In this document: positions 1,662 to 63,980 of the stretch, in pieces
Layout: each line of letters begins with the position of its first letter
Position numbering within the stretch: position 1 is the stretch's first letter
Assembly (NCBI GenBank): GCA_963514005.1
Contig: OY740784.1
Location: forward strand, 17,732,001-17,796,000
Reading direction: 5' to 3'
Source: Raja brachyura
Taxonomy: Eukaryota
DNA length: 64,000 nt
Translations under genes and position numbers: made by a program
The notes under the pieces: model-generated
Database searches by the model: none
What the model was told of the DNA's origin: nothing
What the model saw: the letters and a program-made list of their open reading frames with translations, nothing else

Positions 1662-3156
1662 TTTAAGAAAGAACTGCAGATGCTGGAAAAATCGAAGGTA
1701 GACAAAAAAAGCTGGAGAAACTCAGCGGGTGAGTCAGCATCTATGGAGCGAAGGAATAGGTGACGTTTCGGGTCGAGACCCTACTTTAAACTGATGTCGC
1801 GGGAGGGGGGGACAGGAAAAAGAAAAAGGAAGTGGTGGAGACTGTAGACTTTTCCCAATTCCTCCAAATCCAAGGCTTAGCTATGGGCCTGCGCATGGGC
1901 CCCGGCTATGCCTGCCTCTTTGTAGGGTACATCGAACAATCCTTGTTCGAGGCGTACCATGGCCCTATCCCCGAACTCTACCACCGCTACATTAACAAAT
2001 TCATTGGTGCTACCACCTGCACCCATGCAGGTCTCACTGACTTCATCCATTTCACCACTAATTTCCATCCGGCACTCAAATACACCTGGACCATTTTCCA
2101 TCTGGCACTCAAATACACCTGGACCATTTCCAACATCTCCCTACCATTTCTAGATCTCACCATCTCTATCGCAGGTAGCAGACTACTGACCGACATCTAC
2201 TACAAACCCACTGACTTCCATGGCTATCTGGGCTACACTTCTTCCCACCCTGCTTCCTGTAAGGACTCCATCCCCTACTCCCAATTCCTCCATCTACGCT
2301 GCATCTGCACCCAGGATGAGGTGTTCCATCTCCCGACTCGTAACAAGGACAGAGTCCCCCTTGTCCTTACCTTCCACCCTACCAGCCGTCGCATACAACA
2401 TATAATCCTCCGACATTTTCGCCTCTTCCAACGGGATCCCACCACTGGCCACATCTTCCCATCTCCTCCCCTTTCTGCTTTCCGCAGAGACTATTCCCTC
2501 TGTAACTCCCTGGTCAATTTGTCTCATCCCACCCAAACCACCCTCTCCTCTGGTACTTTCTCTTGCAACCGCAGGAAATGCTACAGTTGTCGCTTTACAT
2601 CCCCACTCAACTCCATCCAAGGACCCAAGCAGTCTTTCCAGGTGAGGCAGAGGTTCACCTGCACCTCCTCCAACCTCATCTATTGCATCCGCTGTTCCAG
2701 GTGTCAACTGCTCTACATCGGTGAGACCAACCGCAGGCTTGGCGACCGCTTCGCCCAACACCTCCGCTCAGATCCTAATAACCAACCTGATCTCCCAGTG
2801 GCACTAGCACTTCAACCCCCTCTCATTCCGAATCCAACCTTTCTGTCCTCGGTCTCCTCCATGGCCAGAATGAGTTCCACCGGAAATTGGAGGAACAGCA
2901 CCTGATATTTCGCTTGGGTAGTTTACACCCCAGTGGTTTGAACATTGACTTCTCCAATTTCAGGTAGTCCTTGTTTTCTCCCTCCTTCCCCTCCCCTTCC
3001 CAGCTCTCCCAAGGCCTACTGTCTCCGCCTTTTCCTTTCTTCCCCACCTCCCCCCGACATCAGTCTGAAGAAGGGTCTCAATCCGAAACGTCGCCTATTC
3101 CTTCACCCCATAGATGCTGCCTCACCCGCTGAGTTCCTCCAGCTTTTTTGTCTACC
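1662..3156 (+). mobile_element. Penelope-like retroelement (Neptune-type), 5'-truncated, with inverted pLTR
   Basis: ORF 1832-2905 has RT motifs GLAMG..GPGYACLF and degenerate YHRYINK, DIYYKPTD, a Zn knuckle CNRRKCYSC and GIY-YIG nuclease NLIY-CxxC-LYIGET. 1662-1845 is an inverted copy of 3016-3156. 15-bp TSD TGTCCATTGGAACTG at 1647-1661 and 3157-3171. Confidence 0.9.
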
Positions 3157-4077
3157 TGTCCATTGGAACTGGTACTGCAATTAATGTGGTTGAACCAGTT
3201 TACCCCACGTTCAGAATGGGCAAAGACGTACTCTCCTTCCCCTCCAAAGATGGCAGGTCATGCAGGAATCAAGGAAATTTACTGCACAGGAAATAGTCAC
3301 TTGATCAGTGAAGTTCACACTATCAAAATGTGTCCGCATTTGGCTGCCTTGTGTACAGTGTAGAGGCATTCTCCATGGTAAACTCCTCACTTACAGGTCA
3401 AGTAAGGACTGTCCATTTTACTCATGATTGTCCTGGCCTTCACTCTCCTTGCTAGTGGAGTCTCTCACAGTTTCACCCTGGTACGTGTAATGAAAAGGCA
3501 GCACCAAATGTTAAGTGTGCTTCCATGGCCATTGCACTCACAGTGTGCTCACTGCATAGAACACTGTACATGGAAACAGATTTTCATTCCTGTGAACTAT
3601 GAAGCTTTGTGACACAATTAAATTTAAACGTCACTACCATCAACTAGTAAGTGTTTTTACCTTGGACCAAAATCAGGTCTACCGTGGCTGGTAGACCTGA
3701 TGCATCTTTGGTCTAACAGCCAAAATTCAATACAGACCCCCGGCACTGTTTGTGGACTTCTACAGGGAGCTCTGGTTTCCTCTCACTCAAAAGATGTGTG
3801 GGCTTGTGGGTTACTGTAAATTGTCCTGAGTGTGTAGGTCATGATTGATGGGATATAGGAAGATGAATAATTGGTGACCAATGATCAACATGGACAAAGG
3901 GCCTTGGAAGGGTCCTGACCCAAAACGTTGCTTGTTCATGTTCTCCAGACATGCTGCCTGAGTTACTCCAGCACTTTGTGCATTTTGTTGCAAGCCAGCA
4001 TCTACAATCTCTTGTGTCTAATGAGTCTATGCTGTATGACTATGATTATCTATATATATAAAACTCAATTATATATT

Positions 4078-4300
4078 AAACACAAAAAAACTGGAGTAAC
4101 TCAGCGGGTCAGACAGCATCTCTGAAGAAATGGAATAGATTCCGTTTCGGGTCAAGACCCTTTGAATTTGTTCCGAAGAAGGGTCTCGACCAGAAACATC
4201 ACCTATTCCTTTTCTCCCAAGATGCTGTCTGACCTGCTGAGTTACACCAGCTTTTCGTGTCCATCTTCCGTTTAAACCAGCATCTGCAGTTTCTTCCTAC
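4078..4300. mobile_element. Palindromic Penelope pLTR-derived element
   Basis: Head-to-head copies of the pLTR (ctggagtaactcagcggg...gacgtttcgggtc and its inverse). Confidence 0.8.
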
Positions 4301-4463
4301 TAATTATATAGAGGTTTTATAGTAAACTATTATCAATTTAATTGTTTTTCTGAATTAAACTAATGCTTCGTTTTTGTGGTAATCATAAGAAAAGATTTGC
4401 TAGAAAAGCTTCCAATCTATATATTCTTTTCTAAATTAACCTATTAAAATTCCATTTTTTTAG

Positions 4464-4506
4464 AACTGGTTGGACCCAGCCAAGGAAATTAAAAAGCAGA
4501 TCCGAA
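4464..4506 (+). CDS. EPB41L3: 4.1B FERM exon (NWLDPAKEIKKQIR)
   Basis: tttttttag| ... |gtaagt, 43 nt, phase 0-1; hallmark WLDPAKEIKKQ motif. Confidence 0.96.
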
Positions 4507-5994
4507 GTAAGTATATTTTACTACTGACTTGAAATGCTACTGACATGTAATGATCACTGAAAGAATACATATCTTCTGCTTATGTAGAGAATATTTCTTT
4601 CCTTCACATTCTGAGATTTTAAGACTCGTAACCTTCAAAGGGTTTTCTAAAATGTTTTTTTTTTAATTTTCCCGTTTAAGACATTTTTGTTTTCATCTTA
4701 TATCAGAGATGAACCTGCATTGAACTATGGATAATCCGCCGGCTTTTCTGAATTACTATTTAATTGTAAACAGTAACCAGAGCTGCTGAACTAGGGATGA
4801 ATGATATGGCAAATGACAGAATAATCACAATGCAGCTAACCAAACAAACATTACAAAAATCTGTCTATTTAGGTCTGCAAACTAATTGGGAACAAGGATG
4901 CAGATGTAGAATGCTTGGGAAATTAAAAATGGAAGTGATTATGTACTTACATTATGACAATCTTTTAAACATTAAATATTTTATTGGTTCTTAAATATTT
5001 TTCTTTTTACATTCGTTAGAATTTGAAGGGTGTATAATGGCCACACTGTTGAATACAGTGTTTGGATTCACTGTTATCCCTCTCTTAGAATGTTGTATCT
5101 TTATGGCGCTACACTTGTATATGAAGGTGCAATTTGAAATGAGATACAATGTCCATATTAGACCTGTTTCTTATATCTCCTGAAACCGATTCCATAACAG
5201 GGTTTGCTTCAGCATGGGTCTGAAACTCTTATCAACTCCTTGTCATCTCTGAGGTTTCCCAGTTCTATCCTGACAGGAAACCCAGCTCTGTGAACTCTAC
5301 CGCGACAGCTCTGCAATTTTTCTTCGCTGACTTAGTGGCTCCCTAACCTTCAACTCGTATATAACAAAATCCAAATTTTCATTTGTAATCCATTTATGAT
5401 TTTAGTTACCTCTGTAACCTGCTTTAAATGTACATCACAGCCCAGACTCCTTTTGCTTTAATACCAAACTGCCCTACTCTTTCTGCTTCAGATTTGCATT
5501 GACAAACTCATTCATCAAAAATGTAAGGTTGTAATAGAGGTTATGTTGCATGACTGACAATGTAGAGCTCCAGACTAATAATAAGGAGACGTGTGTTCTG
5601 CAGTGGTTATTTGATTAGCAAATCTTTTCACGTGGCTGTGGAACTGTTCAGAAAGGTGACTGCATCAAGAAAGACATGAACACTACCAGGCTTGGCAAAA
5701 ATAGTGTTGTGGACTTTTACAGACTCTCCTAGGTCTGGAAGAATTCAGATATTTCAGTGGGATTTTCTTTTCGAAAGAATAAGCTCCAAATTCATTAACT
5801 AACAACATTAAAAGTTTAGTTATTTATCTGTGTTCATATATAGAATAGAATAGAACAGAATGCATTTTATTGTCATTCAAACAGCTTGGTTTGAGCGAAA
5901 TTGCATTTTCTACAGTCTTAACATTACAAAAAAACAAACTACAAATTACATTATAATGACACATTGCTCTGTTATACATGTTGCTGTAGTAAAT

Positions 5995-6431
5995 ATCCTG
6001 GGATGTCAGGACTTTCATATGAAGAAAGACTGGATAGACTCGGTTTGTACTCGCTGGAATTTAGAAGATTGAGGGGGGATCTTATAGAAACTTACAAAAT
6101 TCTTAAGGGGTTGGAAAAGCTAGATGCTGGAAGATTGTCCCCGATGTTGGGGGAGTCCAGAACAAGGGGTCACAGTCTAAGGATAAGGGGGAATTCCTTT
6201 AGGACTGAGATGAGGAAAACATTCTTTACACAGAGAGTGGTGAATCTCTGGAATTCTCTGCCACAGAAGGTAGTTGAGGCCAGTTCATTGGCTATATTTA
6301 AGAGGGCGTTAGATGTGGCACTTGTGGCTAAAGGGATTGGGGGTATGGAGAGAAGGCAGGTATGGGATACTGAGTTGGATGATCAGCCATGATCACATTG
6401 AATGGCGGTGCAGGCTCGAAGGGCCGAATGG
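5995..6431 (+). mobile_element. CR1/HER1-type LINE 3' fragment
   Basis: LSYEERLDRLGLYSLEFRRLRGDLIETYKI...TRGHSLRI...FFTQRVVNLWNSLP, the CR1 ORF2 C-terminus. Confidence 0.92.
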
Positions 6432-7563
6432 TGCAAGACCTGGGAAGAGAAAGCAATGATGGGAAAGATACACTAAATGGTAGACCTTATGTAGGGGTAG
6501 AGAACCAATGATTCAGATGATTATAGGGAAAACATTATTAAGTGTAGTGTGCTTGTTTGATAAAGGTGTCTTTCTACCCGTAAAGTTGTTAATCAAAATG
6601 ATGAGTATTTTGAAGAAAAATCCAAATTTGTGGCATATTTACACTGACCTCTTGTAATTGCAGTTTTAAAAAAAAATGTTTAACAATCTGTAGCTGTAGT
6701 CCGCTTTGTGACATATATTCTAAGTGTAACTGATATAGGTCACATCGTTCTGACGTCCTGTTTACTGGAGCATGCAGATATAGTGTTGAACTACATTTTT
6801 CCTTAGACATCAGTTTTTTAAAGTTATTGTTCACTATTAAATTGGCAATGGGGGCGGATTGAAATCATGAGCCATATTGCTGTAATTTAACTTTTTATTT
6901 TATCACACTTCAATCAATGTGAAGGTTGACAATAAATCAGAGAATTATTGCAGGCTGACAACCGTGATGTGAGATGAAGTCATTGCAGATCATCGTCCTG
7001 ATTTGCATATCAAGCTAATGCTTGAATTCTAATCAGACATGTTTATGGTTCCTTTCACTCTGAGCAGCTGTTCGCTTGGGTATCAATTGGACATGTACTT
7101 AGTTAATTCAGGCCTGGAAGTTTTCTTCCCCACTATGGAACTTTCTCCTTCCTAAGTGAGAAAAGAAATTCCATAGTGGGGAAGGAAACATGAAATCAGC
7201 TTTTTTTTTTAACTTAACACTTTGAAAACTGAAACAATTGCATATTGCTTCGGTCATTTTACGTACTCCTGTGGTCATGATAACAGGTTCACAAAAACAT
7301 CAGATGCACATTTTGATAAAATGATTCACCACGTTAATACAATAGTAATTTCTCGAATGAAACCGACACGAAAATTGGGGAGAAGGACATTTAGGACAAT
7401 TTCTAATAAAGAAGCAAAGACATGGGTATCTTTTAATTCCAGAATTGATCTGAGGTAAAGTTGTCAAAAAAGCGTTGGTCGTATTACTAGTGAAAAAGCA
7501 TTTCTTAAAAGTAATTATTTCAAAGGAAAGCTTAAATCCTTTTATTTGTTTGTCTCTATCTAG

Positions 7564-7639
7564 GTGGTTTGTGGCAGTTTGCATTCAATGTGAAGTTCTA
7601 TCCTCCGGATCCCGCTCAGCTCTCTGAGGACATCACAAG
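7564..7639 (+). CDS. EPB41L3: 4.1B FERM exon ([26 protein letters not shown])
   Basis: ctag| ... |gtgagt, 76 nt, phase 1-2; VKFYPPDP motif. Confidence 0.97.
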
Positions 7640-7861
7640 GTGAGTGGGAACAATATTTCCTTTGCATCCAGTTGAATCTACTTTGGAAAGAGCTGTTTTG
7701 TAATGACTTTCTATGGAAAGACCGTGCATGCATTGTGTGAAATTGGGTGTTGAGGCCCATGAAATCCCTATCATCCCATCAGTTACTTTTAGTTAAAATC
7801 AGTGGTAATCATCAAAGCAAAATAAAATCATGATAAGCAGGAATTTGGAGTCAGGAAAAGC

Positions 7862-8445
7862 AGTCTTTGGACACGATCTACCACGGAGTACTGAGATTTG
7901 TTACAAATTTTAAAACCCTCACGCACCACTGCTCTTTGTATGAACAAGTTGGATGGTTTGCCCTGTCCACCCGCAGACTCCATCGTTGGCATATCCTTAT
8001 CTATAACACTATCCTCGGTGTTCTTCCTTCATACCTGCAGAAGTATGTAATTCGAAAAAGCACAGGAACTTATCAGCTCCACTCTGAGGACTTGTTCTTA
8101 CTAACTGTACCTAATGTCCGTACTGAACTGGGGAAAAGGGCATTTAGTTCTGCTGCTCCCTTCACATGGAACCAGCTGCAGAATGAATTGAAACTTAAGG
8201 AGCTGGTTTCTATAAACAGATTTAAATCTCTTCTTAATGATGTTGAAGCGGGCTCTTCTGTCTGTATTGCTTTGTTTGATGTTGTTATGACTGTGACTCT
8301 ATTTATATGTTCTCTTATATGTTTTTAAATTGTTGTCTGTAACTGGGGAACTGTGCTGCTGCCTGTCTTGGCCAGGACTCTCTTGTAAAAGAGATTTTTA
8401 ATCTCAATGAGACTTCTCCTGGTTAAATAAAATTAAGTAAAATAA
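7862..8445 (+). mobile_element. L2/Crack-like LINE 3' fragment
   Basis: ORF LDTIYHGVLRFVT..THHCSLYEQVGW..L..RR..VPNVRTELGKRAF.AAP.TWN, followed by a 3' stem-loop and cctggttaaataaaa tail. Confidence 0.8.
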
Positions 8446-8995
8446 AGGAATAAAATCAAGCCATACACGAGAATAATAAGAAATGGAAAGAGAAAAATAT
8501 CAGTGTGCAGAATATAGTTTTACAACATCACAGTGTTACAGTTACAGAGGCAATGCAGTCTAAACTAAAACTCACAATAAATCAGAACTACATGCCAGCT
8601 TATGGGAGGACTGCTCAGTTGGCTAACATCGGGAAGGAGCTGCTCCTGAATCTCGTGGTATGTGCTTTCAAACTTTTGTATCTTCTGCCCGATCAGAGAG
8701 GGGAGAAGGCGGAATGATTGAGTTGAAAATTATTCCTGAGGGCAGCGTAGTGTGTACAAGGTGTCAATTGTTAGCGGGGGTGGGGAAGGCTGTAGGCTGG
8801 TTTATGTGATGGACCGGGCTACATCCACATCTCACTATAATTCTTTGGGCAGAGTTGCTGCAAACCAAGTTGAGATACATCTCAATAGGATGCTTTCTGT
8901 GGTGCAAATATTGAAGTGGTAAGAGTTGTTGGAGATATGCTGAATCTCCTTAGTCTTCTTAGACTAAGGAAGTAAAGGCATTTGTGTGCTTTATT

Positions 8996-9750
8996 ATAGA
9001 TAATAGACAATTGGTGCAGGAGTAGGCCATTCAGCCCTTCGAGCCAGCACCGCCATTCAATGGCTGATCATCCCCAATCAGTACCCCGTTCCTGCCTTCT
9101 CCCCATATCCCGTGACTCCGTTATTTTTAAGATCCCTATCTAGCTCTCTCTTGAAAGCATCCTGAGAACCTGCCTCCACCACCCTCTGAGGCAGAGAATT
9201 CCAGAGACTCACAACTCTCTGTGAGAAAAAGTGTTTCCTCGTCTCCGTTCTAAATGGCTTACTCCTTATTCTTAAACTGTGGCCCCTGGTTCTGGACTCA
9301 CCCAACATCGGGATCATGTTTCCTGCCTCTAGAGTGTCCATCCCTTAACAATCTTATATGTTTCAATGTGATCCCCTCTCATCCTTCTAAACTCCAGAGT
9401 GTACAAGCCCAGCTGCTCCATTCTCTCAGCATATGACAGTCCTGCCATTCCGGGTATTAACCTTGTAAACCTACGCTGCACTTCCTCAATAGCAACAATG
9501 TCCTTCCTCAAATTAGGGGACCAAAACTGTTCACAATACTCCAGGTCTGGTTTCACTAGGGCTCTGTACAACTGCAGAAGGACCTCTTTGCTCCTATATT
9601 CAATTCCTCTTGTTATAAAGGCCAACATGCCATTCGCTTTCTTTACTGCCTGCTGTACCTGCATGCTTACTTTCATAGACTGATGTACAAGGACCCCCAG
9701 ATCCTGTTGTACTTCCCCTTTTCCCAACTTGATGCCACTTAGATAGTACT
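8996..9750 (-). mobile_element. CR1/HER1-type LINE 3' fragment
   Basis: Minus-strand ORFs QDLGVLV...KKANGMLAFI...LYRALVKP.LEYC; (CTATTGT)n-type tail. Confidence 0.93.
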
Positions 9751-10659
9751 TATTGGTATAGTTTCCATGTGGTCGGTCCAGGATAAATTGTTGGTGATAT
9801 TTACACCTCACTTCCTGAAGTCATTAAACTACCTGCTTTGGAGAGGTTAAAGATGTTCGCGAATAGTCCTGCTAGCTGATCTGAGAAAGTTCTGAGGCAG
9901 CTGGGGACCAGACCAGTTGTTTTCCACAGTATATAATACCCCATCTCTCACAGAGGTATGAACATGAGATGAGAGGAAAGAGAATTGAAAGAGGAAGAAG
10001 ATGGCGATGAACCTGCAGCATGTTGGAAGAAATAAATTCCAAAGAAACTTTCAAAGTAACAAATATGTCAGAAGAGAATGGATGAAAGTTTGAATTAGAA
10101 TGTGATGATTACAGAATCTTTCTTATTCCCCGATTGCCTGAAGCAAAGACCTCACAATGTAACCAATAATCTTCCAACCCAAAATATATCCCAATGATAT
10201 ATTATACAGATTGCAATGTTCTTACCATCCTGGTGGAGCTACATCAACGATAACGTCATTTATTTTTAGGCTGTTGGACATATTAAATATTGCCATCTGC
10301 CTCTTTCCTGCTGAGTGCTTTGAACCTGCCTTCTCAACAATCGGCAATGTATTTTATTCGGTGTGATTCTCCAACATCTTTCTGAATGCTTTCCATAACC
10401 CAGAGGATGTACATTAGTAAATGTGAGAGTTTTATTTCACTTCAAACTTCATGTACTTTGACAGCTTCACTCAACACCTTGATTCAAAGCATATTTTAGA
10501 AATACTTAATTCATGTTATCTTACAAACGCATTAAGGAAGTGTACTTTTTAAAATTTCCTCTATCGACAAATTAATACCACCGATATATATCAGCTAAAA
10601 TTTCCCAAAAAAGGGAAGAATCCACTACTTAAATATGATAATTTGGACTGCAGAGAGAG

Positions 10660-10905
10660 TTACAGTGGTCAGTACAACTCTGGACACATCACGGTGAAGG
10701 AGCGTGTATGTAGCCCGGGCATTGAGCTGATGGCTGTGGGTCTCTGCTTATGCTGGGTGCCCTGGGGATTTGCACGTGCCGCTGTGGTGTTTAAGTCTAT
10801 GTCTAATCTTTATGTAGTTATGTATCTTGTTGCTTTTTTTTTTGGTATGACTGTATGGCAAATCAAATTTCACTGTACCTCGGTACACGTGACAATAAAG
10901 AACCA
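10660..10905 (+). mobile_element. Internally deleted Rex1/Babar-like LINE remnant
   Basis: Endonuclease-region peptide RVCSPGIELMAVGL joined directly to a typical 3' end (aatttcactgtacctcggtacacgtgacaataaag). Confidence 0.55.
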
Positions 10906-12189
10906 TCGAACCTTAATTATATCTTTATGGTCAAATTATGTTGGAGAGAAGCAAACTGATCATCTGTTGTTGGAATTGAGCGTTATTATTTTCCCACTCA
11001 ATAACAATTGATCCTGGAGGTGGGCATCTTAATTCCACTTGTAGGCCCAAATCTGCGGCAACGGACATCAGAGCATAAGTTGAACATTCTGCAGCCAGCT
11101 AGAAGTAGAACAACACTTAAATTTAGTTGGTATTGCTCTAGATTCATGTTTTACTTCCTGCTATAGAAGCTGACAAAAGAGTGGTAATGAGAACTTATCA
11201 ACACCTTCTTCTAAAACTAAAAGAATAAATAGATACATGGTGTAATAATGTTAAAATGCATTCAGCATTTTAGCATGTTAAAAATACAGTAATATTGTTA
11301 AAGGCAATTATGTTTGAGATGCATATCTCAAATGTGTCTTGCTATTATTTGGACTATTTACTTTCAAACAGCAACTTACATTTTCATCATTTATGGTTCA
11401 GAGCAGGGTGCTGTATATTCCAGTCAGAGAAGTGGAATTTAAATAAAATAGGTTGTATCACAAAAACAAGTTATTTGCAATGACATTCAACTGGTATATC
11501 TAAGACTCTTCAAATTTCTGGCTTTTTGTTGTTGAAATATTGGACAAATAAATTAATTTTGCACTTTTCCCTTTAATAAGATACCTGATTTATGGCCAAT
11601 ATTCAGTAGGTTAACGGTGCAATGTGAACTTCTAGAACTTGGGCATAGTTGAAAGTATCTCTTATCAATGGGCTTCATGTCTTCCTTCAACAGTCATAGT
11701 TGATTGAAAAATAAAATTGGGACTGCAATTGCAAGGTAGCTAGCGAAAGTCATTACAACTCATTGAAGGGCTTGTAACTTTTGGTTTGGATTGTGAGACA
11801 TGGACACATGCAGCATCAGATAGTATCTGGAGTTACAGCCAAGATTATTACTGGCAAAAAAAAGGATGAATTGGCACTGATGATTTTGAGCCAGGCACCT
11901 TCTATTTGCATGTTTTCCAACTGAGCCAGTCCTTTGATAGAGTGTTGGGAAGTGTCATCTTCTGACCGTTCCTTTGGTCTGCATTCCACACCATTCAGGT
12001 GTGGAGGTGAATCCACACCATTCACTCCTCCACACTGGAAATGTGTGGCAGTAACTCTACTTGCTGTACTATTGCTTTATATAAATGAAAGTTTGAAATG
12101 GAGTAAATACTCAAACCTGCAAAATATAGGGGAGCCCAGAACAGGTGTCTCAAAACCAGCTAGTAAATTTGGAAATAATTTGTTATTTG

Positions 12190-20547: not shown

Positions 20548-20579
20548 TAAGGAAGAGAAAGCTGTAAGATAGGGAGCAG

Positions 20580-24427: not shown

Positions 24428-24721
<294 letters not shown>

Positions 24722-52393: not shown

Positions 52394-52557
52394 GTAATTC
52401 TGTTATTTTAATACTAGTCCATTCAAAATTCTGTGGCTTTGCACATGACAACACACCAACCATTTTTTAAAATCTCTTTGTCGCTAAAGTTATACATTGC
52501 AACATTGTTTAATCTCTTTAGATTACTTTATTTTTGCAAGTGTAGTTATCTAAAGTT

Positions 52558-52862
52558 GGGGCGGCACAGTGGCGCAGCGGGAGAGTTGCTGCTTCACTGT
52601 GCCTGGGGCCCATTTTTGATCCTGATCGTGGGTGCTGCCTCTGCGGAGTTTGCACGTTCTCCGAGTTATCACGTGGGTTTCCTCTGGGTGCTTCCATTTT
52701 CTCCCACGCTCCAAAGATATGCGGGTTTGTAGGTTAATTGGCTTCTGTAAATTGTAAGTTGTCCTTAGTGTGTCGGACAGTGCTAGTGTACGGGGTGGGG
52801 TGATAGTTGGTCGGCGTGGACTCAGTGGGCCAAATGGCCTGTTTCCATGCATTATCTCTAAA
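52558..52862 (+). mobile_element. HE1-like tRNA-derived V-SINE, full length
   Basis: GGGCGGCACAGTGGCGCAGCGG A box, degenerate B box, gagtttgcacgttctcc central domain, ggcctgtttccatgc tail. Confidence 0.88.
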
Positions 52863-53791: not shown

Positions 53792-53972
53792 GGTAAACAA
53801 AAATGCTGGAGAAACTCAGCGGGCGAGGCAGCATCTATGGAGTGAAGGAAACCCTTCTTCACCTGAAACGTTGCCTATTTCCTTCGCTCCATAGATGCTG
53901 TATCACCCGCTGAGTTTCTCCAGCATTTTTGTCTACCTTCGATTTTTCAGCATCTGCAGTTCCTTCTTAAAC
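53792..53972. mobile_element. Penelope pLTR-derived palindromic element
   Basis: Inverted arms; 14-bp TSD ATAGATTCATCCAG (53778-53791, 53973-53986). Confidence 0.85.
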
Positions 53973-54323
53973 ATAGATTCATCCAGCTCATCTATGCTTG
54001 TGCACTGGCCCATTTTGAATATTTTCATTAAATGTTTGTATAGAATCCAGTTAATTAATTGTCCTAATGTGAAGCCTTATCAGTCACAAATGTACAATGG
54101 GGAATATTAAGAATGCTCCATTCAGTCTTCCGCTTGTGAAGGGAAAAACAGCACCCATTTACAAATCCCCACATGCATTGTGGCAGCTAAGGATCTGTGT
54201 CTGAAAATTATTCCACTGCACTTTTTGTGCTGCTGGTTTACTTGGAATAGTCATTGGAGCTTGAAAGTTACTAAAGCTATTAATTGGCTTGTAAATTGAT
54301 ATAATACTTTTCTTCTCACTCAG

Positions 54324-54428
54324 GCTGAAGAGGAGCATAAGGAAGTAGATAAGGAGCCAGCTACTAGTCACAGCACATTGGTGACTAATGAAATTGTGAT
54401 CAGCAAAACAGTCTCATCTCCCCCAGAG
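54324..54428 (+). CDS. EPB41L3: Candidate in-frame cassette exon (AEEEHKEVDKEPATSHSTLVTNEIVISKTVSSPPE)
   Basis: Strong pyrimidine tract plus cag|, purine-rich open frame, GAG|gttgtt donor, 105 nt, phase 0-0; no homolog recalled. Confidence 0.6.
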
Positions 54429-55717
54429 GTTGTTACCTTTATTAAATTCATTTTTGCAAAAAAATCAATATTTGAAATTATTGGCAGGAACATTTCAGCA
54501 TATAATAACTCAACTCTAAGCTATGAAAGGAAAATTAATGATTGATTTGAATATATGCATGCTCTCTTGGTCAGCAGAAATGTTAAAAAGTTATAGTTAT
54601 TCTTAACTAATCTCAATACGAATCAGAAGGGAAAAGTGCAAGAATAATGGGTTGTTTACGGAGCAAAAAATAAGTCAGTAAGTGCTTAAGTGAGCTTGCT
54701 TAATACACTGTAGCCCTGCTTTGGTGACTGGTGTTCCTGTGGTATGTGATGGATGTTTGCTCATTTTTGTAGTGTCAATAATATTACATGAAATTAGATT
54801 AAATTTGAAAACCCAACACAATTTGCCGAATAAAACATGGGGAAAAGATGATCACATGCTGGGTCACAAAGTTGTAGACACAAGGAACTGCTGATGCTGG
54901 TTTGTACAATAAAGGACACTAAAGTGCTGGAGTAACAGGTGATTAGGCAGTGTCTCTGGAGGAAATGGGTAGGCTTTGTTTTGAGAGCGGACCCTTCAGA
55001 TTCTGAAGAAGAGTCCTGTCCCAAGATAGCCTATCCATATTCTCCAGAGATGCTGCCTGACCACCTGAGCTATTCCAGCACTTTGTGTCTTTTTCTGGGT
55101 GACAAAATGCTTGGTCCAAGAGATGAATTTCGGGGAGAGCCTTAAAAGGAAGAAGGGGTTGGAGGTGAACTATTTAGCAGAGGTGGATCGGAGGATCGGA
55201 AGACATGGACATCAGTAACTGGTGCAGGAAATGTGTAATTAGTCAAAGTCAGAAGGGTGAAGTTTGAGAAATGTTTGTGAGGTTAGAGTTGGGGAAGGGA
55301 ACACCATGAAGAATTTAAACAAGCGAATGCTTCCCTTTTTTATTTGATGCTTTGGGGGGGCAGTGGTTAGTATATATGAAACGAGCCTGATCAATGAATG
55401 AGACAGGATAAGCAAAGACCTTCGCAATCAATTGGATGTGTAACGGAGATTACTGGAGTTCCCTAATCTAGAAGTAGCAGAGGCACGGAGTTTAAATAAG
55501 GAGTGCAATAGAAGTAAAGTAGATATCCATGAAAGTTTATGGCATTGTGTCCAGGCTTTGATTCACCCTGAGATGATGACCAGAGGTGGGTAGGAAATTG
55601 GTGTAGCAAGTTTGGGCTTGGACTCTAGATGGTGGCTTTGATCTTCTCTATATTTTTGTGAATAGTTGTAAAACTGGGCAGGGCCTGTACCACTGGTCCA
55701 GACAATGAAGTTGGAGG

Positions 55718-55930
55718 ATAGACACAAAATGCTGAAGTAACTCAGCGGTCAGGCAGCATCTCTGAAGAAAAGGAATAGGTGATGTTTTGGGTCAAGACTC
55801 TTCATCAGACTGATGAAGGGTCGATCAAAGTTCTTGACCCGAAACGTCACCTATTTTCTCCAGAGACTGACCCGCTGAGTTATTCCAGAGCATTGGTGTC
55901 AAACAGCATTTGCAGTTCCTTATTGCACAC
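55718..55930. mobile_element. Penelope pLTR-derived palindromic element with back-to-back hammerhead cores
   Basis: Inverted arms meeting at ttcatcagactgatgaa; + strand CTGATGA-A-GGGTCGA..TTGACCC-GAAACGTC at 55810-55848. Confidence 0.8.
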
Positions 55931-57024
55931 AAATTAAGTTTGAGGTATTGGAGGAGGCAAGTTTTGCAAATCATGGCAAAGGCTGCGAAGGGAATGAAAG
56001 ACAAAAAAAATCAGTGATTTGTTTCATGAGAATTTATTTCAACCTTTTAAGGCACATTATTAAGGTACATTTTTTATGTACATTAAGGTACATTTTTTAT
56101 GTATATTAAGGTGCATTATTCCTATTTACAGTGCCTCCATGATCTTGTTGCATAGCCAACATGGTTTACTAGCAAAGGATATAATTTCATTTCATACTAC
56201 AGTTTCATACTGGATCCTGAGCAGGGAATGGTGGATATTCATTTTGTTCCTAACTTTTAAAATGTGGTGATTCTATTTAGGTGTTTGTTACAGGCAAGTG
56301 ATCTAAAGGTTTATGAAAGACTTGTGATGTTACAACATATTTAGTTCTAAAACAGAATCCCCATGTAGTGCCTATGCATGCTTGTGTGCTTCCCCCTTTC
56401 AAATGGATAAATAATATATTACAGCAAATAAAGGGATAAAAAGATTGTTAAATTTAGTTTCAAGCATAATGTCAGTGTAATTTCAATGAATTCTTTGTTG
56501 TTTAAAGCCCTTCCTTACAAAATAGCTAGTAGACCTTTCAATGCCATGGACTAAAACTAATTTTGTACACTAAATCTTATATTCCTTTGGAAACATCCAA
56601 GTAATTGTGGTTCACCACGTTGCTGCAAATCTGGCTGATGTTTACCCATCAGTTGCAGAAGGCACCAATTTCTATTCCATTGATTAATTGTAGCATGGCT
56701 GGCTCAACCCGGGACTGCTGCCCTGGAAACGAGGCCAAACATTTAACTTCTGCGTTCAAGGTTACAAACATGTTTATCGTTTTACACATGCTGCATTGAA
56801 CTTTTATTAATCACTGAAAAAAATCCCAATCTAGATCAAAATGACTGTTGAAAGGCAAGTTTGTAGGGGAGGGAGGAGAGGAACTCTGCCAATAGGCCGA
56901 CGCCATTGACAATGCTATAGTTCACATTGTTTAGCAGAGATGGAGAAAGTTGAAGATGAAGGGAGATGTATGTTAGTCAAAACAACAACAATTGGTAGAT
57001 TTTGTGTCATCTGTCAAACAACAG

Positions 57025-57261
57025 AAAACTGTGCTGTCCACTCTGGAAGAAACTATCATTTCAAAGAAGGTGGCAACAAAAAGTGATGATGATGAAGGTA
57101 GTCTGAAACCTAAAGAGATTGCACGACAGAAAGGAATTGAAAGCTCTGATATGGAGCCTGCCATTGTGACTTCAATGACCAAATGGAAGACTGGTGAAGA
57201 GCCTATGTTTACTATTGCCACAGCACACTATTTTACTGAGACAACGGGATCAAGATTTTTG
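57025..57261 (+). CDS. EPB41L3: Candidate in-frame U3 cassette exon (KTVLSTLEETII...EEPMFTIATAHYFTETTGSRFL)
   Basis: Within ORF 56992-57339; aacag| acceptor (alternative tag| at 56977 is also in frame), TTG|gtaact donor, 237 nt, phase 0-0. Confidence 0.65.
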
Positions 57262-57611
57262 GTAACTGTTGCCTTTGACTGTCACAGTCTAAAGATAAAA
57301 CGCATGACTTTCAGGCAGCACTTGCTTCAGTACGCTTAAAACAGCTAAAACCACCGTTGAGTTTACCTGCAATTTGCTTGTACCCAGCCAGTGATCCTCC
57401 AATATGGTTTTTACTTTTTTTTTTTGCTATTACAAATTGTTTTGTTGAATTATCCACAAAATTTAGGCTTTATCGTGCTGATCCTGATTTTCATTTCACC
57501 AGATAAACACTTCATCGACTACTGCGACTTTTTGCACAGATTGTTCACTTAAGATTCTTTTGCATACCCCTTCCTCCAAGCAAATTATTTGTAATATGTG
57601 ACTTTTCTAAG

Positions 57612-57756
57612 TACTAACCTATAATCTCATCCTCTTGCCTGTTTTCCTTACACTCCTCCTTTATTTTGCTTTTCCATACATTTCTATTTAATCTCTTGCT
57701 CTCTTCTTTCCAATCTGTATCTCTGAAACAACCTTTTGTCTGTCTAATGTTGACCT
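57612..57756 (+). promoter_or_regulatory. TACTAAC (branch point/QKI motif) with long AG-free polypyrimidine tract
   Basis: TACTAAC at 57612-57618, then no AG dinucleotide until 57757. Confidence 0.5.
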
Positions 57757-57806
57757 AGTTATGTATGTCAGTTAGCTTTATATGTTGACTTTCTGTGTCT
57801 ACACAG

Positions 57807-57929
57807 ACAAAGCAGTCTGGTTCTGAAGTAACCTCAAAAAATGTAGACGTCTCCAATCTAATAGATTCGGCACGAAAACAAATGGATGGAAAGGAATGGG
57901 CTGCTGCTTCATCTTACAGCTGGGTTCAG
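57807..57929 (+). CDS. EPB41L3: 4.1B U3 exon (TKQSGSEV...LIDSARK...SWVQ)
   Basis: acacag| ... CAG|gtgttt, 123 nt, phase 0-0; matches mammalian TKQSS...LLESARK...SWVQ (41 aa). Confidence 0.92.
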
Positions 57930-60900
57930 GTGTTTTTTATTCCTTTAAGAAATCTTCCACCCTTAATTGGTCTTGCCATTTTTGTTATTTCTACTTCTAG
58001 CTATTTGTTGTGCTTTGTCTTTCTAGTATGTTTTCTGCATCAAACAAAACATACTGGGCTCAATAGGACTCTCCTTCCCTGTGAGGCTGATGGTTTGCCT
58101 TTTAACATAATCTTTCCCAGTTACATGCTATCCTACTTGTACAGATTTCTGTAGATTTCATCGTGATGATTAGTCTCCTTTCTCCCATACTCATTGTTTG
58201 CTGGGCATGGTATTCCAACTGGGAAATGATTTGACAATTTTGATGATGAGTCAAGTTGCTGTATTTTAACAAACAAAAATGTTCCTTTTTAAAAAATTAT
58301 CCTTGTTATCTCAAGTTCCTTTTAAAACATTTCATTACTTCCTGATGACTCTTAGACAAAGTTAAGGCATGAGGGTCTCCATCAAGTTTCCACAAGGAGC
58401 CTGAGCTGCGTCCATGGTATTAAACTACTTATCGCTGACGGTCATTGATATTTAACCTGTGTACAGGCGCTACAAGGGATACAAAGGAACATCACCCACC
58501 CCACCTTGTGCAAATAAAAATACTTTGAAGCACAAATCTCTGGTGGACAAGCTCTAGATTTATCCTTGAGTGTGATCTCTTCTATCCTCTTGCCTAACGT
58601 TACTTTCCATGCCCAAACCAGAATGATGGCCGCTGTTACCTTCCCTTCCACTTTTTTTAGTTTGAGCAGGGAAGGATCTGGCCTCTCCGTGCTGCTTTCT
58701 CACAGTTAAGCAACTGGTAATCAGGAATTAACGGCAAACCTGCGCTGAGGCCACTGAGCCACGACAGATCATTTGTAACAACACTTTAATTTTGGTCACA
58801 CATCAAAAAAGCACATCCCATGTGTAAAATATAATGGTTTAGGCTCCTTGTAAATTTGCTTTGTGCTCCTTATTGCCTTAACTGTGCAATAAGTGTGCAA
58901 GAATCTTTTTGATTGGAGGTGGACTTTCTATGAATCCAAGGATGAATTTATGATGCTTGAATAAATAATTGGGAGTTTTCAGCCTGTATTTAATTCCCCT
59001 GTTCCACGATGCTCCGCCAGCAGGGGAGCACAACTGGAGGCGGCAGAACAGTGGCATACATCTGAGCGTAATTGTTCCTGGAAAATCCACAACATTGAAA
59101 CTTTGAAGCTTCACGACATGAATATGAATATTGTAATAGACGACGCCTGCTTGGTTATGCTTTCTATCTTTCCTTACCAAATAAACTAATGATCACCCAT
59201 GATCAATATCACTTTGATGAAGCATGCGATTCATGAAAGTATTTGGGAGTGAAGCATTAGTATATGACCATGCTAAGTGTGACCACACTGAGTGTGTGTG
59301 AACAACACAAGGCCATTTGGGGAATGTTAATTCACCCTCGTGTAATGGGGGGGGGGGGGGGGGGGAGACACATCTTGCACTGAGGATGCCCACCCTTTTA
59401 TTGTTTGGGATGCATCCTTCCATAACCCTTTCAGTAGTACTAAACTAGATCAGTTCTGAACATGCCTAATACTCTATCTTTGCATCCTTGAAGCAATGTA
59501 GACAGACCATAGGTGATCTTGAAGACCTGTCATGTCCCTTCCTTTACTGTGCTCCTCAAGCCAGGAGGATCTCTTCATTTAGGGATGATGGGCTATGCCA
59601 TGAAGCTGCTTCAAGAACACCTTAAACTTAGAAGTTGTTACAACATGGAAATATTCTATGTAAATCAGCAGTCTCTGGATGAAGCAGTGTAATCCCATCA
59701 CCAAGTCAAAGTTCTGCACTTACCAACTGGATATCATAATGGATATGATAAAAATTAACAGCAACAAACCCCCTTCCAATATATTGTCAAAGATTGCAGA
59801 GCCATAAAATAAATGGAAAAGATAAATCTGCAACTTTTGTTGTCAATTTCATGCTTCCTGGTGAGGTCCCCACCATCATAGAGCTCATTTTTCAGATCAT
59901 TCAACTCATAAAGCCATAAGACTTAAAAAATAATGGGTTAGCCATCTTATGACCTGCTGCATCTAGCAAAAACTTCAATTACACCATGGTCCAAAACCAG
60001 TATACTTGTCAACATGCTGTTAAATTGAATCTGAAGTTTAATGTTACATGTTATCTGGCTGTTCTTCCCAATAACAATGCATATTTTGGATTTCTGTCTC
60101 GGCATTGTGATGTGTGACCTCAGCTTTTATTCATTTATGATCAAAATTGTTGTATAAGTGACAGAGAGTGAGAATAACGATCACTGACATGAGACAACCT
60201 TTGAGCAACGGAAGTATTTATGACCACTCGTAAAAATTAAAGACGGGAAATCAGTAAAACCCTTTCACTAGCTGGAAATATGTCCAGTGTAAATCCTGGG
60301 ACATGTCTCTGGAATTCTTTAGGGCAGTGTCACTTGGCCCAAAAAGACTCTGGCATTAGTAAATTTCCTTCCATGTCATGCTAGAAGCAGGAATGTTTGC
60401 TGATGATTTCAGTTTTCAATTCCATTTGCAAGACTTCACGTGGCCAAAGCAGCAGGACTCAGACAACATTCAGACTTGGCTGAATGAAGGCATAACGTTC
60501 ACATACTACAAGTGCCAGAGCTATTGGCAGTTTCACCACTGACCAGAAACCTATCAGCATCAGCCATGTTAATCCCATATCTGCATTAATCCCATACCTG
60601 CAAGATCAGTTCAGAGACTGAGAGCCCTGCCCTATAGTAAGTGACTCCCGTTCTGACTTTCAACCCCTTTTCACTGCAGACAGGGCACAATCTAGAAGTA
60701 GGAGTGTAGCTCCAACAGCAACCCAGAAGCTCCGGACAATTCTGGACTAAGTAGGTCATTTGTCTGGCATTCCTTCCCATCACCCTCCACAATCACTCTT
60801 AGCGTCATCAGCAAATTACAGGTGCAATGTTAACCTTCCGCAAGCAGCACTGGGCGCATGTCCTTTCACCAAGTGCACTGCAGCGGGCCACAACGCAGTT

Positions 60901-61893
60901 CCCCTCATCACCTTGAGGACCATTTAGATGGGGTGTAAATGGCCATAACTATGACGATAGTTATTAATCAGGTTGAATTGATTGTGCTCAGTGGTTCTGA
61001 GTGCACCTGTCACAGGGGCATCAGTGATATGAGGACATCCAAAGGCAAAAACTTGGAGACGCTGAATATCTGAAATGAGCCCAGAAAATGCCAGAAATAC
61101 CCAACTGGTCAGGTGGCATTTATGAGGGGTAAAAACAGAACCACTCTTTTGGATTGCTGGCCTTCCCATGGAATAAGTCCATTAGCAGATTATCAGAAGG
61201 TGGTTGTATGCAAGGTGCACATGAGAAAAGCCATTAAACTTGCTGAATTAGATATCACGGTGTGTGTAATGTGCATATCTGTCCATTTGATTTAATTGCT
61301 TCTATTACCAAAAAATATACTTATGCTGTGGCAATGAAATTCTTCTTTGAAGTCCACTTTCAAGAAGAGATGTCCCAGTACGCCTTTTATTTTGTATCTG
61401 GGCTGATAACCTATTCTATGACAGCAAACATTTTGCATCAACCAAATCAGCCGATGGTTTGAAAACTCTCGGTGACGTGATAATGTTTGAGAGGAAGGAA
61501 TGTACATAAAAATGAGTGGCAGGGTCATGAGAACAATACCGTGGAGAAAAATGATTGACTGAGGAAGAAAAACTGCCTGAACATTTTTGATATTATAAAC
61601 TTTACTTTGTATACATTCTGTGCCAAAAGCATGCCATGGATCAATTGACTACATCAATCTGTGCCGTGCATATGGAATATCTTACACAGCTTTTGACTTT
61701 AGATTTTATCATACTTCCACAGACACAATAAAAACTGAATTTTATAAGTGTACTCTTTCCATATTTAGATTTTAAAACACGCTGGTGAATTAAAGAGGGA
61801 GTTGGCTGATAACTCCGGACACAACGTGTCACCATAGTAGCTATTCGGTTTTTTATTTCTTACACTTTCTCACAAGAGTTTTTATCTCTCCAG

Positions 61894-62289
61894 AAACCTG
61901 ATATGAATTTGGACGAGATGGTGCAACATGAAGTCCACAAGCAGGAGAAGGCCATGAAGATTATTCAGGAAACAATGGTGATGGAAAAGAAGCATGAGAT
62001 GAATGTGCATGCAAGCGAGGATGCTTCTGCTCTGTGCGCTAAGCTGGCAGGAGATGGGAGGGAAACTTTAACAGAGGCGAGCAAAGCTCACTCATCTGGT
62101 GATGCAAGGGGTCTAAGTTGCATGGTGACCGTGGACACCAAAGAGGACAAGAGGGAGGCAGCAAGTTCCAAGGTGGATCAACCAGGAGATGAAATTCTAG
62201 AAGGGCCACCTTCTGCTCAAGGGTGGGAGGATCAGCCAGAAATGGCAGGCAAACCTGCAGAAAAATCTGAAACGCAACCTCAATTTGAG
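61894..62289 (+). CDS. EPB41L3: 4.1B U3 exon (KPDMNLDE...KIIQETMVMEKK..MNVHASEDAS...QPQFE)
   Basis: ctctccag| ... GAG|gtaact, 396 nt, phase 0-0; resembles KVVQETVLVEE..VHASGDAS...KPHFE. Confidence 0.9.
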
Positions 62290-62627
62290 GTAACTGGTTC
62301 CCCTCACCTCCTTACCAACTTTCATAACCATCCCCATTAATCCACTTGTTTCCACAGACACCAATATCAACATCAGCACTGTTTATTATTTTACAAGCAA
62401 AATCATAGCAAAACACCTTCAAATGCTTTGCAAGTAATGCATGTGTTGAGTAATTGCTATTGAGTTATAAGATTTGTATCACCCATTACACACACCTGAT
62501 ACTCGGGTGGTTTCAAATTTAGAAACATTGGGAGCAATTTGAATCCAACATGGCTGGTAGGAAACTGATGCCAGCTCAACTTTAGTTTCCTTCAACGTCA
62601 AAATCAAATAACAATATCAAACAGTTA

Positions 62628-62911
62628 AGAATAACGGGGTAGCCTATTTAGGACTGAGATGAAGAAAAACATTTTCACCCAGAGAGTTGTAAATCTGTGG
62701 AATTCTCTGCCACAGAAGGCAGTAGAGGCCAATTCACTGGATGTTTTCAAGAGAGTTAGATATAGCTCTTAGAGCTAACGGAATCGAGGGTTATGGGAAG
62801 AAAGCAGGAACGGGGTACTGATTTTGGATGATCAGCCATGATCATATTGAATGGCGGTGCTGGCTCGAAGGGCCGAATGGACTACTCCTGCACTTATTTT
62901 CTACGTTTCTA
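62628..62911 (+). mobile_element. CR1/HER1-type LINE 3' end
   Basis: Same 3' sequence as the other CR1 copies. Confidence 0.9.
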
Positions 62912-63864
62912 AATTTGCGCAGGCAGCTGACATTTTCTTCCATGAGCAGATAAAACTCCTCATTTGGCATGCCATCTTATCAACATTAATTTTGAAACAA
63001 CATGTGCAGTAAGCTGCAGCTTAATGTATGGCTTCCGCACACCTGCAACGCTCTGTCGCTGTGATGCATTCTGTTTCTGATTTCATTTTGCTATAGTCAG
63101 ATTATTGCAAATGACTGAGAACCTCCTGTGGTTATCTGAAACTTAGACTTCATTCCTGAATTGATGAATTCTAATTAGGCCCAAGAAATTCTGGGTGTTT
63201 GACTATGAAAGCTTTTGAGTTTTTATTTATATATGTTGAATACATTTTTACTATAATTTATCTTTGTATTAGAACATATCTCAAAGCAGTTAAACTTTGT
63301 CATTGGATTTATACACAGTATTTTTAATCTCTTTTTGGGACAGTTTTGGTGATTTATAATTTTATAGTTATATCTTGAACAACTTGTTTGGATCAGGGAA
63401 GCAAATAGCAATCCACAATTGAGTTTTAATAACAACTAGCATAGGCCTTGGGAACCTCAGTGCCAGGCTATGGGAGAGATGTGCCGCTGAAAGTAGATAG
63501 TCTGCACTTTGTGCCAGAAAAGAAAAACGAATCTAAAATGTGTTTTATATAAAAATTGCTGAATCCTGGCCTTAAACATTATTTGCAGAATATTTTCAGA
63601 AGTGCAAATAGAGACTTCTTGCCCCTTTAGTGTTCTTGGTCACTTGAGGACTACTGGACGTACTTTGGCACGAATAGCACTTGATGTTCTCTCACAACTT
63701 CTGTTTCCTTTATGCTGTGTACATTTGCCACATTTACTGTGAAATAGCACAGATGTAACTGGAGTCCTCGCAGTGTTAGTGAGAGAAGGCCCCCAACTGG
63801 TCACTGTATGGAATAGCAAGGAAACAATTTATTTTCCTGCCCCAATGATCACTACTTCAAATTC

Positions 63865-63980
63865 TGAAGTCTGAAGAAGGGTCCAGTCTGAAGAAGGGTC
63901 TCGACCCGAAACGTCGCCTATCTCCTTCGCTCCTTAGATGCTGCTGCACCCGCTGAGTTTCTCCAGCTTTTTGTGTAACC
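63865..63980 (+). mobile_element. Minimal Penelope pLTR-derived insertion
   Basis: 15-bp TSD CACTACTTCAAATTC (63850-63864, 63981-63995); tandem agtctgaagaagggtc. Confidence 0.88.
63888..63915 (+). ncRNA. Minimal type-I hammerhead ribozyme core
   Basis: CTGAAGA-A-GGGTC-TC-GACCC-GAAA-C-GTC: core boxes, perfect stem II, palindromic ACGT stem III and GUC cleavage triplet. Stem I is very short. Confidence 0.65.

Follow-up and report, generated by a model that had tools for sequence, protein, structure and literature searches.

The introns of a skate gene contain repeated motifs that resemble minimal hammerhead ribozymes, which raises the question of whether they act on the transcript that carries them. 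We addressed this in a 64,000 nt stretch of Raja brachyura DNA (GCA_963514005.1, contig OY740784.1, 17,732,001-17,796,000, forward strand), called here the window. The gene on the + strand belongs to the protein 4.1 family: FERM_M, FERM_C, FA and SAB domains were found, and the top PDB match of the FERM_M exon is Band 4.1-like protein 3 (134 bits vs 120-122 for 4.1R). It is thus 4.1B (EPB41L3)-like, in line with the host proposed in a preliminary description of the sequence. The same description reported an array of hammerhead cores, mostly sense to the gene, and suggested that two of them might dimerise in cis and cut an intron, affecting splicing. Judged from the sequence, it is very probable that the copies in the window are truncated or inverted end-copies of a genome-wide Penelope-like element, that the motif serves the RNA of the element, and that the copies in introns do nothing and are in decay (Table 1).

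A Penelope-like element with a minimal hammerhead

The motifs lie in 3′ ends, each made up of pLTR and tail, that derive from a Penelope-like retrotransposon carrying the published minimal hammerhead. The exact 28 nt core occurs 50,946 times genome-wide (25,542 forward, 25,404 reverse; control, 0); the expectation for 64 kb is 1.2 exact cores, and one is present in the window. We examined 10 loci with long open reading frames. At three of these (L044, L045 and L048) two exact cores lie about 3.98 kb apart and flank a 1,203-codon frame, and at a fourth (L042) the upstream core is a one-letter variant; this is the pLTR-ORF-pLTR partial tandem of EN+ Penelope-like elements. The 1,203-codon frames match reverse transcriptase (RT) and GIY-YIG domains, in the EN+ arrangement of a single ORF that holds RT and, at its C terminus, a GIY-YIG endonuclease, and in the 1,190 aa ORF of L044 the two matches (RVT_1, E 5e-4; GIY-YIG, E 1.8e-3) are both below curated cut-offs. 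Elements with intact frames are present in the genome, with the first Met about 160 nt downstream of the core. The RT-EN linker in the L044 translation reads C-X4-C-X2-C, and fits the CX2-5CxxC given for the Neptune or Nematis clade in the relevant part of PMC8557442; by linker motif and layout, the element is a candidate member of one of these clades. An inverted 5′-truncated copy with an optional 30-40 bp tail, also typical of EN+ elements, was found, for example, at 1662-3156 in the window. An opposite-strand neighbour lies within 300 nt of 49% of intragenic copies, and the 3′ ends of copies cluster near +90-95 and +125.

The family core and 4 of the 28 window copies have the features of a minimal type I hammerhead, namely CUGANGA, GAAA, the extra nucleotide, G10.1-C11.1, palindromic 15.2-16.2 and NUH; in the family core stem II has 4 bp closed by a tetraloop, and stem I has 2 bp. 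The cores, the anatomy of the element and the account in part of PMC4209133 therefore agree with the earlier statement that Penelope pLTRs carry such ribozymes with a palindromic stem III, and both the extra nucleotide after CUGANGA and the 2 bp stem I noted at the time recur in the family core. A longer stem I was seen neither in the flanks of either subfamily, on inspection, nor in predicted folds. Rfam scans gave seven matches at E<=5 in the whole window and six at E<=10 in 63800-64000, with no hammerhead family among them, and the core differs from the canonical hammerhead of curated covariance models, in which helix I is about 6 bp. For a motif lacking stems I and III such an outcome is expected, and it is hence no argument against the motif. 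A literature search found no paper joining Penelope, skate and ribozyme.

Table 1. Host gene and Penelope-derived features of the window (TSD, target-site duplication; pairs are head-to-head where so described).
Feature	Position	Strand	Remarks
Protein 4.1B (EPB41L3)-like gene	900..62289	+	extends beyond window at both ends
4.1B coding exons	near 900, 4464, 7560, 15650, 18740, 24480, 29516, 33690, 52200, 52980, 54320, 61892	+	
Penelope insertion, 5′-truncated	1662..3156	+	inverted pLTR, ORF remnant and hammerhead-bearing direct pLTR
15-bp TSD of this insertion	1647-1661 and 3157-3171		
Its inverted pLTR and tail	1667..1800	-	CUGANGA box decayed
Its open frame	1790..2902	+	RT C-terminal part, Cys linker, GIY-YIG start; internal deletions; PF01541 E 3e-4, below curated cut-off; 75-85% identity to intact-frame copies
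Its minimal hammerhead	3065..3092	+	boxes intact; one G-U weakens stem II; 2-bp stem I; intron bounded by exons near 900-1010 and 4464-4510
pLTR stub	3906..4013	+	decayed
Head-to-head pair	4077..4296	4162-4077 (-) / 4166-4296 (+)	both cores broken; long hairpin predicted
Two stubs	13319..13993	+	13319-13408, 13936-13993; decayed
Head-to-head pair	14876..15085		includes listed site 15000; both cores broken; 11-bp duplication candidate
Solo stub	16344..16458	+	11-bp TSD
Core of solo stub	16357-16384	+	boxes intact; GUU triplet; G-U-rich stem II
Stub	19443..19562	+	decayed
Tail stub	20239-20300	+	within 20239..20549
Pair	20455-20396 / 20448-20549	- / +	core 20456: palindrome ACGU lost (ACAU)
Pair and stub	23203..23549	23234-23203 (-) / 23246-23367 (+); stub 23447-23549 (+)	every core broken
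Tail-only stub	31723..31791	+	
Weak decayed stub	35601..35692	-	profile search E 0.0055; not on earlier list
Tail-only stub	41318..41378	-	profile search; not on earlier list
Head-to-head pair	53785..53966	both	no complete core; 14-bp duplication
Head-to-head pair	54881..55100		includes listed site 55003; both cores broken
Head-to-head pair	55712..55921		+ core 55810-55848: boxes intact, stem II with 11-nt insertion, no stem I
Weak tail stub	61053..61134	-	profile search E 0.0027
Young stub	63865..63980	+	short 5′ duplication; sole exact window core, 63888-63915
15-bp TSD of young stub	63850-63864, 63981-63995		

Strand, density and decay of copies

All 14 motif sites listed previously are present at, or within 1 nt of, their reported places (23260 is at 23259), and the C17 positions given for the printed cores (3092, 55848 and 63915) are correct. 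We scored a core as intact when it had both boxes, at least four pairs in stem II and the self-complementary ACGU. By this definition only four of the 28 copies in the window are complete (3065, 16357, 55810 and 63888), each in a different intron. The term hammerhead core thus holds for four of the 11 listed + sites, fails for the other seven, and applies to none of the three listed - sites. The description 'mostly sense', drawn from that list of 11 + and 3 - sites, does not survive the full census of 17 sense and 11 antisense copies (p=0.35); copies covering the core number 10 sense and 4 antisense (p=0.18), and intact cores 4 and 0 (p=0.125). 'Array' is also a misnomer, as the copies inserted independently and lie scattered, several of them having a target-site duplication of their own, at a density within the range of our samples. 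The motifs are well above chance, the profile search having returned 973 copies in 1.764 Mb vs none in a reversed control. The exact core of the window belongs to the youngest subfamily, with a mean divergence of 2.3%. A relative is represented by two contigs, from two samples, whose match ends at 63864, where the left duplication also ends; this hints weakly that the relative lacks the insertion.

We compared the window with 1.4 Mb from 21 other gene spans. These contain 438 sense and 421 antisense copies, with intact cores at 48:42 and no association between intactness and sense orientation (Fisher p=0.66). Of 52 alignment starts in a peak at the GAAA box, 45 come from tandem arrays in four stretches of one gene; redone without those four stretches, the strand test gave 379:403 and 48:40 (95% interval 0.44-0.65). 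Neither enrichment nor depletion of the sense orientation is therefore seen in the strand counts of the 21 spans. The test rules out strong bias only. A cut within an intron may be tolerated, leaving no strand signal. Copies and intact cores per 64 kb were 28 and 4 in the window, 39.3 and 4.1 in the other genes, and 15.7 and 1.3 in random stretches.

Decay of the core was measured in 469 copies that span it, by comparing non-CpG core positions with invariant flank positions. Changes were found at 288/4,599 core positions (6.3%) and 1,282/18,218 flank positions (7.0%; p=0.07), so that inserted copies lack excess conservation of the CUGANGA and GAAA boxes over the rest of the pLTR, an outcome that the preliminary description had named as one half of what would refute its proposal. 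The core is kept slightly, not significantly, better than the flank. The catalytic G12 is altered in 131 of 448 copies, and core decay is 10.5% in sense vs 10.8% in antisense copies (p=0.72). A domesticated intronic ribozyme would be marked by sense bias and by purifying selection on the core of host copies, and neither was found. Between the five largest subfamily groups the boxes do not vary whereas the tail does, a pattern consistent with selection acting on the element and not on host copies. In stem II, the pair-breaking variant accounts for 1,691 copies and the pair-restoring double variant for 154, a frequency close to the 0.11 ratio expected for independent changes (44/397); between subfamilies, only one-sided compatible changes were seen, with U-A replaced by U-G in both stem I and stem II.

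Where copies begin

Young copies begin preferentially just before the ribozyme: 36 of 63 start at -6..0, that is 0-6 nt upstream of the core, with a peak at -4 to -2, and none starts at +26..+45, around the cleavage site. Across the cut site genome counts go down only from 51,146 to 38,562, whereas immediately upstream of the core they drop from 38,562 to 12,313. This pile-up, with none at the cut site, suggests that copies are made from uncut RNA that starts immediately before the ribozyme. RT would begin within the tail, some 95-125 nt downstream of the core, in the way that the relevant part of PMC11167929 shows for the anole element, and would then copy towards the 5′ end of the RNA; if the uncut transcript has its start at the initiator-like CAGT that immediately precedes the core, the resulting stubs would measure about 100-130 bp, and head-to-head pairs could come from self-priming, or from template switching, at the CAG-T-CTG palindrome. 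Against a start at this point, none of the 10 long-ORF loci has a 5′ end at -6..0 within 400 nt upstream of the ORF.

Other origins of the pile-up were considered. Cleavage at the upstream GUC (-2..0) was rejected, since starts peak at -4 to -2 and not at +1. So was an origin of the stubs in ribozyme-cut RNA: in a set of 95 copies that includes seven loci picked for their exact core (the count of 63 being the unbiased one), only three start at +27..29, and two of these are extension artefacts with the core upstream. A possible though less favoured alternative is that the pile-up marks a preferred stop or self-priming point of RT at CAG-T-CTG, or the 3′ splice site of a pLTR intron, and not a transcription start. 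Among 47 copies that start at -6..0, 16 are inverted at CAG-T-CTG, and self-priming is held responsible for palindromes at inverted junctions (PMC3846280); the other 31, however, are uninverted, and the letters upstream of them share no common exon. As to splicing, a pyrimidine tract precedes the CAG, and the pLTR intron of Drosophila virilis ends at helix I according to part of PMC4209133. Against this, no GT..AG joint into the CAG was found among the 15 joints listed of 170, on which ground it was rejected; the GT-starting contig joints have no AG end, and also occur in the run taken as DNA control. Either of these readings would alter the origin of the stubs only, and not their inertness.

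As a useful by-product of this analysis, the stubs form a genomic record of Penelope self-copying, and their start just before the ribozyme, not at the cut site, is consistent with the finding in vitro that insertion uses uncut RNA as its template. The record also predicts a precise RNA start.

Proposed cutting of the host transcript, and comparison with known systems

In the tandem transcript of the element, two cores 3.98 kb apart could join through a stem III of four ACGU/ACGU pairs and cut, for which the help of protein would probably be needed. The proposal that two intronic cores likewise dimerise in cis through ACGU, cut the 4.1B pre-mRNA co-transcriptionally and tune splicing or intron turnover has in its favour that all four intact-box cores are sense, that minimal PLE hammerheads cleave somewhat as dimers in vitro (reported in part of PMC4209133, where activity is low even so) and that conserved intronic type I hammerheads are known in amniotes (part of PMC6155905). 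We nevertheless consider it extremely improbable. No intron has two intact sense cores; they lie in four introns, 8-39 kb apart (successive spacings of 13.3, 39.5 and 8.1 kb), strand bias is absent, cores decay like their flanks, and the sole exact copy is the young insertion that the relative may lack. In the folding model, the active dimer is placed at -6.7 kcal/mol, 13 kcal/mol above the best dimer of a 35 nt fragment (-19.7), and compares with -37.2 for two folded 103 nt monomers. The predicted probability of stem II is <=0.03 for the 3065, 16357 and 63888 cores, and for the 55810 core the model predicts a hairpin with its inverted - twin that would lock it. A genuine element copy, L044, folds equally poorly in the same model, and the folding result therefore cannot separate working from dead copies. 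With the few intact cores in separate introns, competing with stronger local folds or paired with inverted twins, cutting of the 4.1B pre-mRNA is predicted to be negligible.

Intact intronic cores might instead be cut occasionally in trans, with element RNA and protein, when the element is expressed, as an incidental and not a regulatory event. This seems very unlikely to us. Cleavage by the anole PLE hammerhead requires the protein of the element (part of PMC11167929), and the skate genome has intact-frame elements and tens of thousands of exact cores; yet intact sense cores are not depleted in the 21 gene spans, no stubs start at the cut site, and the anole data, in the part of PMC11167929 used here, include no reads at the cut site. 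A bolder version, in which a capped ribozyme at the 5′ tip of a transcript starting 3-4 nt before the hammerhead pairs in trans, licensed by the protein of the element, with any of some 50,000 identical cores, so that each time the element is expressed host introns, those of 4.1B among them, are cut, we regard as a highly improbable conjecture. If host introns were cut in trans, nascent RNA would be affected across the genome under the control of the element, but nothing here indicates this. For 4.1B we expect little consequence: the window is an ordinary sample of an abundant retrotransposon, and its stubs are likely without effect on the transcript.

Among known systems, the closest is the minimal hammerhead of metazoan PLE pLTRs, as described in part of PMC4209133. 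The skate family shares with it CUGANGA, one extra nucleotide before stem II, G10.1-C11.1, GAAA, palindromic 15.2-16.2, the lack of loop III, presence in both pLTRs and an occurrence mostly as dispersed singles or inverted neighbours from truncated elements, and with the D. virilis variant a 2 bp helix I. It differs in its 4 bp stem II with a tetraloop and in a copy number far above the approximately 4,000-9,000 given there for coelacanth and Xenopus; the sections of PMC4209133 used here name no cartilaginous fish. Neptune/Nematis-type EN+ elements (part of PMC8557442) share the single RT and GIY-YIG ORF, the linker, partial tandems, the inverted 5′-truncated copy and the optional tail, whereas the skate ORF has a long Pro-rich N-terminal part. 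The PAc (Poseidon) element of Anolis (part of PMC11167929) likewise has its hammerhead immediately upstream of the tail, the inferred starting place of RT, and is copied from uncut RNA; its ORF, however, starts at stem II, and the skate linker is of another clade. Amniote intronic type I hammerheads such as that of RECK (part of PMC6155905) are also intronic and sense to the host gene, but are single, deeply conserved and full, with tertiary contacts, whereas the skate copies are multicopy, decaying, minimal and strand-unbiased. Non-LTR retrozymes, known from one chondrichthyan according to part of bioRxiv 10.64898/2026.07.22.740005, are also PLE-derived and hammerhead-bearing, but form head-to-tail tandems with a complete ribozyme in each consecutive unit, whereas the copies in the window are dispersed or head-to-head.

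The Penelope-like element and its copies in the window

The hammerhead motif represents a Penelope-like retrotransposon's 3′ end. The RT-end and GIY-YIG remnant of one insertion in the window (see table) has at least 249 scored matches in the genome, several of them lying in open frames some 1,203 codons long. At three of 10 long-ORF loci examined, exact cores flank the ORF on both sides, about 3.98 kb apart, and at a fourth the upstream core is a variant differing by one letter. The element's protein gives weak RT and weak GIY-YIG matches, and has a C-X4-C-X2-C linker; linkers of this type mark the Neptune and Nematis clades (PMC8557442).

Genome-wide, the exact 28-nt core is present in 50,946 copies, split evenly between the strands, with 1.2 expected per 64 kb as compared with 1 in the window. 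A profile made from natural copies (0 hits in reversed sequence and 973 real hits in 1.764 Mb) detects 28 window copies, of which 17 are on the + strand and 11 on the − strand (P = 0.35). All 14 sites of the preliminary description are present in the sequence; its impression of a mostly sense array was mainly a sampling effect, because eight minus-strand copies had been overlooked. Only four of the 28 copies have intact cores (3065, 16357, 55810 and 63888), defined as retaining both boxes, the ACGU sequence and a stem II with four or more pairs. At 63552-63864, two contigs from a relative lose their match precisely where the left target-site duplication ends, which hints at a lineage-specific insertion at 63888.

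Four sampled genomic stretches (L106:3515-4679 on contig G000:C42, L101, L103 and L110) contain head-to-tail 66-bp arrays in which the pLTR is represented from GAAAC to the tail. These are minisatellite-like, occur in both orientations and lack the CUGANGA box; possibly they arose from repeated RT template jumps.

Repeats and probable exons in the window
Feature	Coordinates	Remarks
Typical Penelope insertion	1662-3156	inverted pLTR, RT-end + GIY-YIG remnant, direct pLTR with core at 3065; 15-bp target-site duplication
3′ ends of a putative CR1-type LINE family	5922-6431, 9003-9680, 16606-16882, 23897-24182	both strands; in the family as a whole (this row and the next), several form inverted pairs, ~96% complementary
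3′ ends of the same putative LINE family, further	33977-34671, 48170-48684, 62621-62908	both strands
Long inverted repeat	7121-7188	unrelated to Penelope stubs; weak Rfam matches under gathering scores
Open frames	7837-8325, 20551-20883	appear similar to what is left of the C-terminal part of other non-LTR retroelements; Pfam gave no match at E ≤ 0.01
Probable alternative 4.1B exons	57022-57260, 43936-44517	first: low-depth contig cover, skipped by the major joint

The host gene and the strand of the copies

The host gene on the + strand belongs to the protein 4.1 family, with FERM_M, FERM_C, FA and SAB domains in Pfam matches (4 of 13 scanned frames) and Band 4.1-like protein 3 as its top match among solved structures. 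Other exons were located via splice signals and short motifs. GT..AG joints 52391-52979 and 54426-61892 (the major joint) were present in contigs from 4 of 4 runs, likely RNA runs, of relatives.

Strand and density were compared across 140 stretches (1.4 Mb) taken from 21 gene spans, which may include nested genes and whose strand was assigned from myosin and ion-channel exons recognised by Pfam. Sense and antisense numbered 438:421 for copies (P = 0.59), 48:42 for intact cores (P = 0.60) and 30:27 for solo intact cores. When four tandem-array stretches were removed, copies stood at 379:403 and intact cores at 48:40 (95% interval 0.44–0.65), and therefore at most a mild bias is possible. Intact-core density in the sampled genes, 4.1 per 64 kb, equals that of the window; 20 random stretches gave 1.3 per 64 kb (4 cores). 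The proposal that intronic cores regulate 4.1B finds no support. The motif is real, and the copies are ordinary retrotransposon debris.

Folding, decay and the origin of the stubs

Dimerisation in cis within a 4.1B intron, as had been suggested, is not borne out, the four intact cores lying in four separate introns spaced 13.3, 39.5 and 8.1 kb apart. The core at 16357 has a GUU triplet; for the one at 55810, which has no stem I, complete pairing with its inverted twin is predicted. With three different lengths of flanking context, stem II has a predicted probability of ≤ 0.03 at 3065, 16357 and 63888. In predicted folds the active dimer reaches −6.7 kcal/mol compared with −19.7 for the best dimer of a 35-nt fragment. 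Because the model lacks tertiary contacts, and the genuine element's copies fold equally poorly in it, these predictions show a need for help rather than inactivity. In PMC4209133, minimal PLE hammerheads are described as having no activity in monomeric form and only weak activity when dimeric. For the anole PLE, PMC11167929 reports that hammerhead cleavage requires the element's protein, that the hammerhead is dispensable for insertion in vitro, and that RNA-seq ends are absent at the cut site. In the youngest subfamily (window 63916 onward; L044:2471-2510, a full-length element), a G after the cut site permits a competing CGAC/GUCG hairpin, which abolishes stem II in predicted folds and could be a ribozyme off-switch.

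Decay was scored in the 469 copies that extend over both core and tail, out of 896 left after dropping tandem-array stretches. The boxes, whose excess conservation had been proposed as a test of function, display no significant excess in these inserted copies: non-CpG core positions depart from the family majority at 6.3%, compared with 7.0% for invariant flank positions (P = 0.07). In 131 of 448 copies the catalytic G12, which is part of a CpG, is altered, and core decay is the same whether copies are sense or antisense (P = 0.72). A pair-breaking stem II variant is present 1,691 times and the double variant that restores the pair 154 times, in line with independent mutation. Comparison of the five largest subfamily groups shows identical boxes, pair-compatible stem changes and a divergent tail. 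The pattern fits an active element under selection whose copies decay neutrally once inserted.

Of 63 copies with at least 92% identity to the full-length element, 36 start within the 0–6 nt that precede the core. None starts between +26 and +45, an interval that contains the cut site (+28). In a separate count, 47 of 95 start at −6 to 0 (16 inverted, 31 solo) and 19 reach further upstream. Genome 30-mer counts, influenced by upstream sequence variants and by four CpGs in the middle pattern, are 12,313 just upstream of the core, 38,562 over it and 51,146 on the downstream side of the cut; relatives' contigs have loose ends at the same place upstream of the core. Together, these observations suggest that stubs are mostly copied from RNA uncut by the ribozyme.

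On the simplest reading, run-off at an RNA start just before the core would yield the stub 5′ ends, for which we consider the chances even or slightly better. The sequence at the stub start fits an initiator pattern, and internal pLTR promoters are described for Penelope elements in PMC2377424 and PMC3846280. Alternatively, the same starts could come from a 3′ splice site or from self-priming, for which the palindrome CAG-T-CTG would be the place. A pyrimidine tract and CAG immediately precede the core in every subfamily seen (L044:2430-2470) and could form a cryptic 3′ splice site in sense copies keeping them; among the contigs shown, no splice joint falls at this CAG. An RNA start just before the core would also account for the 2-bp stem I.

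Comparison with known systems

Rfam scans match no hammerhead family in the window, and the motif does not qualify as a canonical Rfam hammerhead. The window copies differ from a retrozyme tandem, and from the domesticated intronic ribozyme as described in PMC6155905. Because a literature search returned no publication joining Penelope, skate and ribozyme, the family in the window may be undescribed in the literature searched. Its kind is known: in sequence, the motif matches the minimal hammerhead carried by Penelope-like elements of metazoans, and it would work in the same way.
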